Assembly (NCBI RefSeq): GCF_003334815.1
Contig: NZ_QOWO01000007.1
Strand: one strand, 5' to 3'
Source of the DNA: Escherichia coli
Lineage (GTDB): Bacteria > Pseudomonadota > Gammaproteobacteria > Enterobacterales > Enterobacteriaceae
DNA length: 64,000 nt
The translations under genes were made by a program, and so were the position numbers. The notes below the pieces were generated by a model. It was not told the origin of the DNA, made no database searches, and worked only from the letters and a program-made list of their open reading frames with translations. Positions 50,816 to 53,800 of this stretch are shown here, one piece after another. The stretch's first letter is position 1. Every line of letters begins with the position of its first letter.

Positions 50816-53800
50816 ATGCAAAGGAAAACTCTATTGTCGGCCTGTATTGCATTAGCTCTGAGTGGTCAGGGTTGGGCGGCAGATATCACAGAGGTAGAAA
50901 CCACCACAGGTGAAAAGAAAAATACCAATGTGACTTGTCCGGCAGACCCAGGAAAACTCAGTCCGGAAGAGCTTAAACGCTTACCCTCTGAATGCTCTCC
51001 TTTAGTCGAACAAAACCTGATGCCATGGCTTTCCACAGGCGCTGCTGCGTTAATCACGGCCTTAGCCGTAGTGGAACTAAACGACGATGATGATCATCAT
51101 CATCGCAACAATTCTCCACTCCCACCGACACCCCCTGATGATGAATCAGACGACACTCCAGTTCCCCCAACTCCTGGCGGAGATGAGATAATACCGGACG
51201 ATCCGGATGATACGCCTACACCTCCCAAACCGGTTTCGTTTAATAATGACGTTATTCTCGATAAAACAGAAAAAACGTTAACTATTCGCGATTCAGTTTT
51301 TACTTATACCGAGAATGCTGACGGGACTATATCTCTGCAAGATAGCAATGGTCGTAAGGCAACGATTAATCTTTGGCAGATTGATGAAGCGAATAACACT
51401 GTTGCCCTTGAAGGGGTGAGCGCAGATGGCGCAACGAAGTGGCAATATAATCACAACGGTGAGCTTGTTATTACGGGTGATAATGCCACAGTAAACAACA
51501 ATGGCAAAACCACCGTTGACGGTAAAGATTCCACCGGTACGGAAATCAACGGTAATAACGGGAAAGTGATTCAGGACGGCGATCTGGATGTCAGCGGCGG
51601 CGGTCACGGTATTGATATCACCGGTGACAGCGCGACGGTGGATAACAAGGGCACCATGACCGTCACCGATCCGGAGTCCATGGGTATCCAGATCGACGGT
51701 GACAAGGCCATCGTCAATAACGAAGGCGAGAGCACCATCACCAACGGTGGCACCGGCACCCAGATTAATGGTGATGACGCCACGGCAAACAACAACGGCA
51801 AAACCACCGTTGACGGCAAGGATTCCACCGGTACGGAAATCAACGGTAATAACGGAAAAGTTATTCAGGACGGCGATCTGGATGTCAGCGGCGGCGGTCA
51901 CGGTATTGATATCACCGGCGACAGCGCAACGGTGGATAACAAGGGCACCATGACCGTCACCGATCCGGAGTCCATCGGTATCCAGATTGACGGCGACCAG
52001 GCCATCGTCAATAACGAAGGCGAGAGCACTATCACCAATGGCGGCACCGGCACTCAGATCAACGGTAACGACGCCACCGCGAATAACAGTGGAAAAACCA
52101 CTGTTGATGGAAAAGATTCCACGGGTACCAAAATCGCGGGCAATATCGGCATTGTAAATCTGGATGGTAGCCTGACTGTTACAGGCGGTGCGCATGGTGT
52201 TGAGAACATTGGTGACAACGGCACGGTTAACAACAAAGGAGATATTGTTGTTTCCGATACTGGATCGATTGGCGTGCTCATCAACGGTGAGGGGGCAACA
52301 GTATCCAATACGGGTGATGTTAACGTTAGCAATGAAGCGACAGGGTTCAGCATCACAACCAACAGTGGGAAGGTTTCGCTGGCAGGCAGTATGCAGGTTG
52401 GCGATTTCTCGACCGGGGTAGATCTTAATGGCAACAATAACAGCGTGACGCTGGCGGCAAAAGATCTAAAAGTGGTCGGGCAGAAAGCGACGGGCATAAA
52501 CGTTTCTGGCGATGCGAATACAGTGAATATCACTGGTAACGTTCTGGTTGATAAGGATAAAACCGCAGACAATGCGGCGGAATATTTCTTCGATCCATCC
52601 GTGGGTATCAACGTTTACGGCAGTGATAATAACGTGACGCTGGATGGAAAGTTAACTGTTGTATCAGACAGTGAGGTTACTTCTCGTCAGAGTAATTTAT
52701 TTGATGGCAGCGCAGAGAAAACGTCAGGTCTGGTTGTGATTGGCGATGGCAATACCGTTAATATGAATGGTGGACTTGAACTGATTGGAGAGAAAAACGC
52801 GCTTGCAGATGGGTCGCAGGTTACTTCCTTGCGCACAGGATATAGTTATACCAGCGTTATTGTCGTTAGTGGTGAGTCGTCGGTATATCTGAATGGAGAT
52901 ACGACAATCAGCGGAGAATTCCCTCTGGGGTTTGCCGGGGTTATTCGGGTACAGGATAAAGCTTTGCTGGAAATTGGCAGTGGCGCTACGCTAACAATGC
53001 AGGATATTGACAGTTTTGAACATCATGGGACAAGAACCCCAGAACTTACTTATGCTGATTCCGGTGCGAAAATTGTTAATAAAGGTACTGTTGAAATTCA
53101 GAATTTAGGTTTTGCTTTTGTTACTGGTGAAAATACAACAGGTATAAATAGTGGCACGATCTCGTTATTACAAAATGGTAAAGATCCGGCACCGTCTCCC
53201 ATTGTTTTACTGGCTACTAACGGAGGGAGCGCCACTAATGCAGGTACGATCACAGGTAAAGTGACGGAACAACATAGCGTATTTAACAAGTATTCAACGG
53301 GCACATCGAATTCATTTATTTTTAATAACGATGTCAGTAGCATAACAGGGTTAGTCGCTCAATCGAATAGCACAATTATCAATACTGACAGCGGCATCAT
53401 TGATTTGTATGGTCGTGGTAGTGTCGGCATGCTTGCTATAGCAGATTCAACAGCAGAAAATCAGGGTAAAATTACACTGGATTCTATGTGGGTAGATGCA
53501 AATGACACTACCGCAATGCGAGATATAGCTAGCAACAGCGCCATTGACTTCGGTACAGGTGTGGGAGTTGGTACTGATAGTTATAGTGGTGCAGGGAAAA
53601 ATGCAACAGCAATTAACCAATTGGGCGGTGTTATAACTATTTATAACGCCGGCGCAGGTATGGCGGCCTATGGCGCCAGCAATACAGTTATTAACCAGGG
53701 GACGATTAACCTCGAAAAAAATGGTAATTATGACGATAGTCTGGCAGCAAATACTCTGGTAGGGATGGCTGTTTATGAGCATGGTACTGCTATCAACGAC

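Follow-up and report, generated by a model that had tools for sequence, protein, structure and literature searches.

The stretch of DNA considered here, called the window throughout, comprises 64,000 nucleotides (nt) from Escherichia coli (NCBI RefSeq assembly GCF_003334815.1, contig NZ_QOWO01000007.1) and carries an intact copy of ydbA, which encodes a predicted autotransporter of the BigA/YdbA family. A tandem array of 294-nt units, each of 98 codons, lies directly after the segment for the BigA_N domain, and it is this array, its variation in length between strains and the way in which it probably changes that are described below. Tandem Repeats Finder reports one array only between positions 48000 and 58000, at 51476-52135, with a period of 294, 2.2 copies, 90% matches, no indels and a score of 1082. 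Whatever the phase chosen, 51491 and 51785 included, the units start in frame with the ydbA open reading frame (ORF). A preliminary description made from the sequence had noticed an in-frame 294-bp tandem repeat, with two near-identical units of 98 codons and a third, diverged one behind them. Tandem Repeats Finder and find_repeats, the latter of which resolves the three units in register (Table 1), confirm this arrangement, but "near-identical" is an overstatement, since 21 of the 294 positions are mismatched in that phase as well and the longest perfect run is 56 nt. The coordinates of the array and of the gene around it are collected in Table 1.

Table 1. Features of the ydbA gene and its repeat array, in positions of the window
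Feature	Position	Strand	Description
Repeat unit 1	51470..51763	+	98 codons, four β-helix rungs; A/E hybrid relative to seven-unit arrays; equals K-12 unit 1
Repeat unit 2	51764..52057	+	98 codons, 93% identical to unit 1; hybrid of K-12 unit 2 (5') and unit 3 (3')
Diverged third unit	52058..52351	+	62% DNA identity; fixed 3' edge of the array
Longest identical run of units 1 and 2, 56 nt	51569..51624 (partner copy 51863-51918)	+	
Crossover interval in unit 2 (unit positions 99-221), 123 nt	51863..51985	+	From single nucleotide polymorphism haplotypes; K-12 units 2 and 3 are identical there
Intact ydbA coding sequence, 1922 amino acids (aa) plus stop (5769 nt)	50816..56584	+	From ORF translation; BigA/YdbA-type classical (type Va) autotransporter
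Probable Sec signal peptide MQRKTLLSACIALALSGQGWA	50816..50878	+	Inferred, as read off the translation
BigA_N domain PF25784	51233..51475	+	aa 140-220, Pfam E=8e-33; directly before the array
BigA_beta sandwich domain PF25783	55286..55537	+	aa 1491-1574, Pfam E=2.4e-25
Autotransporter beta-barrel domain PF03797	55901..56491	+	aa 1696-1892, Pfam E=7.2e-19
47 nt without counterpart in K-12 at the IS2/IS30 site	53040..53086	+	blastn against K-12 loci

The first two units differ at 21 of 294 bases (92.9% DNA identity), on average one mismatch per 14 nt, and share 93 of 98 amino acids. The substitutions fall in 19 codons, in 14 of which they are synonymous and in five of which they change the amino acid. 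The Nei-Gojobori estimates of synonymous (dS) and nonsynonymous (dN) divergence are 0.275 and 0.025, respectively, and with a dN/dS of 0.09 the units are under purifying selection. A match of 294 nt at 93% identity without a single indel excludes a chance origin, and the divergence suggests that the units of the window are copies of long standing, kept by selection, and not near-identical ones. The diverged third unit has 52-56 of its 98 amino acids in common with units 1 and 2 and is found in all the K-12-type alleles that were fetched. An antisense ORF of 300 aa (51293-52195, minus strand) overlaps the array. None of the RefSeq records fetched annotates it, and it most likely results from the repetitive, stop-poor sequence.

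The number of units differs among strains. Arrays were excised from 18 loci by means of anchors just outside the repeat, and they contain one unit in 19SZHZ713Rt and 23CRST029, 1.25 units in ECCHD184, two in the window, MC1061, J53-p1-pV-hybrid-1 and NCTC86, three in K-12 RV308, CV601 and A27, 3.75 in PER04-33 and ET729, six in PEB14-36, 65COLEC and ECCWS199, and seven in CT29, SEC470 and CAVP880. Queries made of the flanks only gave extra lengths of 882, 1176, 1764 or 2058 nt in collection samples, often plus an insertion sequence (IS) element, and the 1176 nt of extra length in PEC389 correspond to four units. The intact coding sequences (CDSs) encode 1824, 1922, 2020, 2093, 2314 and 2412 aa and differ in the array alone, by multiples of 98 aa or by whole rungs of the modelled β-helix, and every length variant examined at the sequence level is in frame. 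The units are thus arranged head to tail and in frame, have a length divisible by three and vary in number at one and the same locus, as expected of a coding variable number tandem repeat (VNTR), a familiar means by which bacteria alter how long their surface proteins are. The preliminary description had held that such repeats would be prone to expansion and contraction and that this would change the length of the passenger domain. Both statements stand: units number 1, 2, 3, 3.75, 4, 6 or 7 in the K-12-type alleles of complete E. coli genomes, with mosaic haplotypes, each unit adds four modelled rungs to intact proteins that range from 1824 to 2412 aa, and the strain comparison that it had proposed reveals no single copy number common to all relatives.

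The K-12-type family of alleles is present in about 1200 of 5426 genomes. Arrays of at most three units occur in 963 genomes and longer ones in roughly 250, with exactly two units in about 31 genomes and one unit in about 15. The numbers by unit count are cumulative counts of genomes with at least 80% query coverage, which are clean for the two-unit and three-unit queries; the seven-unit query also passed three-unit arrays, so that the division among four, six and seven units is a sampled one. Three units is the commonest state by far, although K-12 and clonal genomes are numerous and inflate its count. A rare 5' allele, seemingly indicated by most genomes matching only from query position 371 on, was rejected: the BLAST pieces had slid by one unit, and the K-12 N-terminal protein is identical.

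Outside this family the repeats are organized differently. In strains without the paa operon ydbA adjoins ydbL, the ST131 strain also keeping a remnant of paaY, and the alleles of these strains are 77-87% identical to the window and encode proteins of 1772-2845 aa. The allele of strain 4224 (ST131) encodes a protein of 2838 aa with about 11 units that have a consensus of their own, and in strain C25 a 441-nt (six-rung) period is repeated 8.3 times. A tandem repeat was looked for in ydbA of Z1323HEC0423 (1772 aa), and none was detectable. The 441-nt unit of C25 and the 294-nt unit imply that lineages differ in the higher-order period that they have amplified.

AlphaFold2 was used to model aa 130-700 from a shallow alignment of nine sequences; the protein homologue search, which yielded mostly partial E. 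coli fragments of little diversity, served only for this alignment. The mean predicted local distance difference test score (pLDDT) of the model is 82.6, with values above 90 throughout the repeats. Each turn of the model has three short strands, a new turn begins every 24-25 residues, and the 98-aa unit consists of four rungs of 25, 24, 25 and 24 residues. The top PDB matches found by Foldseek are right-handed β-helices, namely Ag43, PL6 alginate lyases, Fap2, TibA and pertactin, with weak scores (best E=2.8e-4, template modelling score below 0.3), and a PDB sequence search with YdbA returned no matching chain. The rise of a standard β-helix is about 4.8 Å per rung. At that rise one unit of four rungs would add about 19 Å of rod, and proteins with one and with seven units would differ by about 115 Å in rod length.

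The haplotypes of the units bear on how the arrays change. They were defined from 47 informative columns of the 294-nt unit, the units of the seven-unit array being lettered A-B-C-D-E-F-G. In these terms, the K-12 array consists of an A/E hybrid, F and G, and the window array consists of the A/E hybrid and an F/G hybrid, i.e. K-12 unit 1 followed by fused K-12 units 2 and 3. The array of NCTC86 is composed of an A/F hybrid and G, and this two-unit array appears to be of independent origin. In the window, F passes into G somewhere within unit positions 99-221, where K-12 units 2 and 3 are identical for 123 nt. The junctions of the two one-unit alleles differ, lying at unit positions 141-154 in 19SZHZ713Rt and 44-52 in the other, and the crossover in 19SZHZ713Rt falls inside the 56-nt run common to units 1 and 2 of the window. 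The exchange junctions sit in identical runs of 123, 71 and 56 nt. The 3' segment of F and the 5' segment of G are gone from the two-unit allele and are kept in place in the three-, six- and seven-unit arrays, implying that the change went from three units to two. The two-unit allele of the window therefore appears to derive from a three-unit allele that lost 294 nt, rather than the other way round.

Losses are only part of the picture. In PEB14-36, unit 3 matches unit 4 at 100% of its positions, a sign of recent duplication, so that expansion seems to occur too, and the DNA identity of neighbouring ydbA units is 91-100% overall. Smaller, rung-sized deletions are also found, one of 75 nt at the microhomology CGGCGAC in PER04-33 and ET729 and one of 219 nt at the microhomology CACCGG in ECCHD184. 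The 5' end of the first unit and the 3' end of the last unit are always kept, and the consensus of the units is specific for the lineage (ST131 versus K-12 type). Fixed array ends together with a lineage-specific consensus indicate concerted evolution by unequal exchange, and together with the hybrid units and the homogenisation seen in each lineage the conserved edges are as expected of a VNTR.

It is therefore highly probable that the array is a coding minisatellite (VNTR) in the β-helical passenger of YdbA, which is changed by misaligned exchange between its units. Its basic element would be one β-helix rung of 24-25 residues, and four rungs (98 aa, 294 nt) would form the amplified unit of the K-12-type alleles. 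Misaligned homologous exchange, by unequal crossover between sister chromosomes or by replication slippage, would add or remove whole units, with the exchange junctions falling in stretches that are identical between the participating units, and rarer slippage at microhomologies of 6-7 nt would delete whole rungs. Because the unit length is divisible by three and homologous positions are paired, the products would keep both the reading frame and the register of the rungs. Nothing but rod length would change, and the allele of the window would be a contraction product. Tandem repeats in E. coli are in general destabilised either by RecA-dependent crossover or by RecA-independent slippage and sister-strand exchange. 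Exchange at ydbA may follow either pathway. The changes in length may influence adhesion or the reach beyond the lipopolysaccharide or capsule, and they may also alter antigenicity, as the preliminary description had supposed.

Several observations weigh against this interpretation or limit its reach. All copy numbers rest on assemblies whose method is not stated. No run of identity between the units of the window exceeds 56 nt, and their dS is 0.28, so that this particular allele may change only rarely; its exact protein is found on 441 contigs, and about 50 K-12 assemblies all have the same three-unit array length. Many carriers are pseudogenes, and the variation in length may thus be largely neutral rather than adaptive. 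The change between seven and three units may have gone in either direction, and crossover and gene conversion may each have had a share in it.

Some of these points can be carried further, to the proposal that the repeat of the window is a fossil, i.e. a set of old, diverged modules that are held by purifying selection and stably inherited, instability being a property of the locus and not of the window. The high dS (0.275), the low dN/dS (0.09) and the short longest identical run (56 nt) of its units are what such a history would leave, and the 441 contigs with the exact protein, the identical arrays in strains of several countries and hosts and the constant three-unit length of about 50 K-12 assemblies, none of which shows an exchange between units 1 and 2, are consistent with it. 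However, one-unit alleles do exist, in about 15 genomes, and one of them has its junction in the very 56-nt run shared by the units of the window, while events at microhomologies require only 6-7 nt. The proposal deserves attention but is unlikely to be the full explanation of the window array.

The preliminary description had also warned that such a repeat is a classic site of short-read assembly collapse. The concern is plausible in general, as assemblies of laboratory strains disagree and many drafts end in the gene; for the window itself it is unlikely to apply. MC1061 (NZ_CP195014.1) and J53-p1-pV-hybrid-1 (NZ_CP068706.1) carry the IS2/IS30 disruption of K-12, yet have two units. The MC1061 array is identical to that of the window, whereas the junction in J53-p1-pV-hybrid-1 differs and lies at unit positions 6-76. 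In DH10B, a descendant of MC1061 with the same IS30 transposase variant, the N-terminal fragment of 2526 nt contains three units, and three units are also found in a separate J53 assembly (NZ_CP028702.1) and in about 50 other K-12 assemblies. The two-unit K-12 derivatives reflect either genuine contraction within decades of culture or assembly collapse. Because a deletion cannot be told from a collapse by its outcome where the stretch is identical, sequence cannot decide between the two for the laboratory assemblies; whichever holds, the disagreement among these lineages bears out the concerns about instability and assembly.

Could the array of the window be the collapsed form of a true three-unit K-12-type array, in which the assembly jumped over the 123-nt shared stretch and dropped 294 nt? 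Outside the array the window is nearly K-12, with three mismatches in about 12 kb compared to MC1061, K-12 has three units, and unit 2 of the window is the exact product expected of such a collapse. Two K-12-derived assemblies with two units, against three in DH10B and in one J53 assembly, and the frequent breaks of draft assemblies in ydbA also fit. Nevertheless, collapse is very improbable here. Eight independent complete assemblies contain this array at 100% identity over 1601 nt; they include intact genes (strain 54 and IAL7250) and four IS arrangements (ISKpn26, IS4, IS3 and IS2+IS30), and strain 54 encodes the identical 1922-aa protein, the one found on 441 contigs. A different two-unit array is present in NCTC86, a PacBio NCTC3000 assembly, and a natural one-unit allele looks derived from this very two-unit allele. 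Moreover, units 1 and 2 differ every 14 nt on average, so that ordinary reads separate them.

Two observations on the assemblies may be added. Protein matches to the repeat region are mostly labelled "partial", with lengths of 600-1000 aa, so that breaks within ydbA, either in the repeats or at an inserted IS, seem to be frequent in draft assemblies; the partial matches also carry Pfam PF27417, a family missing from the Pfam copy used here. In XL1-Blue (NZ_CP081007.1, 4630808-4632217), a ydbA fragment is located outside the usual ydbA locus, between IS421 and an IS66 remnant by a 16S rRNA gene, and this arrangement, either a rearrangement or a misassembly, is uninformative on copy number.

A surface protein gene with tandem repeats of polymorphic copy number might also be a programmed contingency locus, at which the expression or the antigenic type of YdbA is switched at high frequency. 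Almost everything speaks against phase or antigenic variation in this strict sense. The unit is a multiple of three and the length variants examined are all in frame, leaving no on/off switch, and strict phase variation, in which repeat changes would have to shift the frame or the promoter spacing, was rejected on this ground. Tandem Repeats Finder detects no short simple-sequence tract in 48000-58000, and there is neither an invertase nor a silent cassette among the annotated neighbours of ydbA. K-12 assemblies are overwhelmingly uniform at three units, and function is lost through IS insertion, not through the repeats.

A further proposal, which we regard as rather improbable, holds that the array is an actively tuned length regulator that changes at laboratory speed (from three to two units twice in K-12 derivatives) and is selected in the wild for reach or antibody escape. 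If so, the length of YdbA would adjust how far the adhesin reaches to how thick the O-antigen or capsule layer is, and the lineage-specific consensus and the 294- and 441-nt periods would be footprints of repeated selective expansion. The array would also be a convenient, fast marker for strain tracking, K-12 stocks included, and among the β-helical autotransporters of E. coli YdbA would be the first for which the behaviour of a Periscope protein, a class that is discussed below, had been shown.

The gene that holds the array occupies the K-12 position of ydbA, with paaX and paaY upstream and pdxI (ydbC) and ydbD downstream. K-12-lineage sequences are the closest matches to the window in this region, which outside the IS site is 99.97% identical to K-12 MC1061, and the position between paaY and pdxI together with near identity to the K-12 fragments identify it as the E. 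coli ydbA locus. In K-12, ydbA is split by IS2 and IS30. The allele of the window has no insertion, and the 47 nt that it retains and K-12 lacks show it to be uninterrupted. The gene was rightly called intact in the preliminary description, since its uninterrupted ORF is as long as the RefSeq CDSs of NCTC86, strain 54 and IAL7250, which are not flagged as pseudogenes, and strain 54 encodes the identical protein.

The C-terminal barrel (PF03797), the signal peptide read from the translation and the β-helical passenger seen in the AlphaFold2 model and the Foldseek matches are those of a classical (type Va) autotransporter, and the presence of both BigA_N and BigA_beta is characteristic of the BigA/YdbA family. 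Against the NCBIfam BigA model NF033178 the protein scores 1075.9 bits, below the cut-off of 3400, with the C-terminal aa 1120-1922 as the best stretch, and it is thus not BigA proper. From its sequence, the protein of the window appears to be a classical autotransporter of the BigA/YdbA family, a relative of BigA rather than BigA itself. Between the signal peptide and BigA_N, within positions 51017-51232 (aa 68-139), there is a hydrophobic stretch of 21 residues, LMPWLSTGAAALITALAVVEL, followed by an acidic, His- and Pro-rich linker that begins with NDDDDHHHRNNSPLPPTPPDDESDDTPVPPTPGG. Such an arrangement is unusual in an autotransporter passenger, and it lies outside the modelled region. Many RefSeq genomes label this autotransporter gene "EntS/YbdA MFS transporter", which looks like a mix-up of the names ybdA and ydbA that has spread through RefSeq annotation.

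Interruption of ydbA is common. IS2+IS30 (in K-12), IS2 alone, IS3, IS1, IS4, IS1414, ISEc68 and ISKpn26 all interrupt the gene in different strains, ISKpn26 doing so in NMBU-W12E19, and the gene of 65COLEC carries a frameshift. Only five of 14 sampled carriers have an intact gene, and full-length ydbA has been reported in about 42% of phylogroup A strains (PMC4951805). Laboratory-evolution papers describe fresh insertions of IS1 and IS2 in ydbA as well as IS-mediated deletions of 100 kb that start there. Such frequent interruption suggests relaxed selection on ydbA, or selection against it. No paper on the ydbA repeats was found in the literature, where experimental-evolution papers mention ydbA for IS events only.

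Within these bounds, ydbA offers a concrete case of a β-helical surface protein that would change its length in whole-rung steps by unequal exchange. The familiar pseudogene of K-12 belongs to a highly length-polymorphic gene, with proteins of 1772-2845 aa across the E. coli alleles examined. Since the array marks a spot where assemblies of one laboratory strain disagree, it can be of use for assembly quality control and stock authentication, and care is called for when the presence or absence of ydbA, or its allele type, is scored from short reads. The biological pay-off is limited because the function of YdbA is not known and IS elements often inactivate the gene.

Several known systems resemble YdbA in part. 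Like Salmonella BigA, it has a signal peptide, BigA_N, a long β-helical passenger, a BigA_beta sandwich and a C-terminal barrel. With the self-associating autotransporters Ag43, AIDA-I and TibA it shares a right-handed, three-stranded β-helix passenger built of repeated rungs, and Ag43 structures are the top Foldseek matches to the YdbA model, with weak scores. Their repeats are of about 19 residues, whereas the rung of YdbA has 24-25. The alpha C and Rib proteins of Group B Streptococcus likewise contain long in-frame coding repeats, the number of which is altered by recombination to give length variants. They differ from YdbA in being Gram-positive, wall-anchored proteins with immunoglobulin-like repeat domains and nearly 100% DNA identity between repeats. 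For alpha C/Rib, immune selection for shorter variants has been demonstrated (PMC9704523).

The closest parallel is with the Periscope proteins, surface proteins whose stalks consist of long, highly similar tandem repeats and vary between strains (Whelan et al. 2021, PMC8201768; review, PMC9704523). Like these, YdbA is a single chain with a rod-like stalk, is predicted to be anchored at the surface and has a strain-dependent number of repeats, and its autotransporter architecture implies that it would be displayed there. Periscope proteins were detected by repeats of more than 50 residues with at least 80% identity (PMC8201768), and the YdbA repeat, of 98 aa with 93 of 98 residues (95%) identical and one to seven units, lies above both thresholds. 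The class already includes ShdA of Salmonella, a β-helical classical autotransporter, as YdbA would be, with 4-6 PATR repeats (PMC8201768, PMC9704523). YdbA/BigA is not among the 84 variable clusters of Periscope Dataset S1, the six E. coli rows of which comprise phage fibres, invasins, YeeJ, a tail protein and an unnamed protein (UniProt A0A376Y364) with a 99-residue repeat in 19-43 copies (PMC8201768). Two differences should be kept in mind. The DNA identity of neighbouring YdbA units (91-100%) is below that of the most variable Periscope genes, and, unlike the independently folding globular domains of the Periscope definition (PMC9704523), the four-rung units of YdbA are segments of one continuous β-helix, as the rod of the model illustrates. 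With these qualifications the ydbA locus fits the known Periscope concept and is an ordinary, though well-resolved, case of a known phenomenon.

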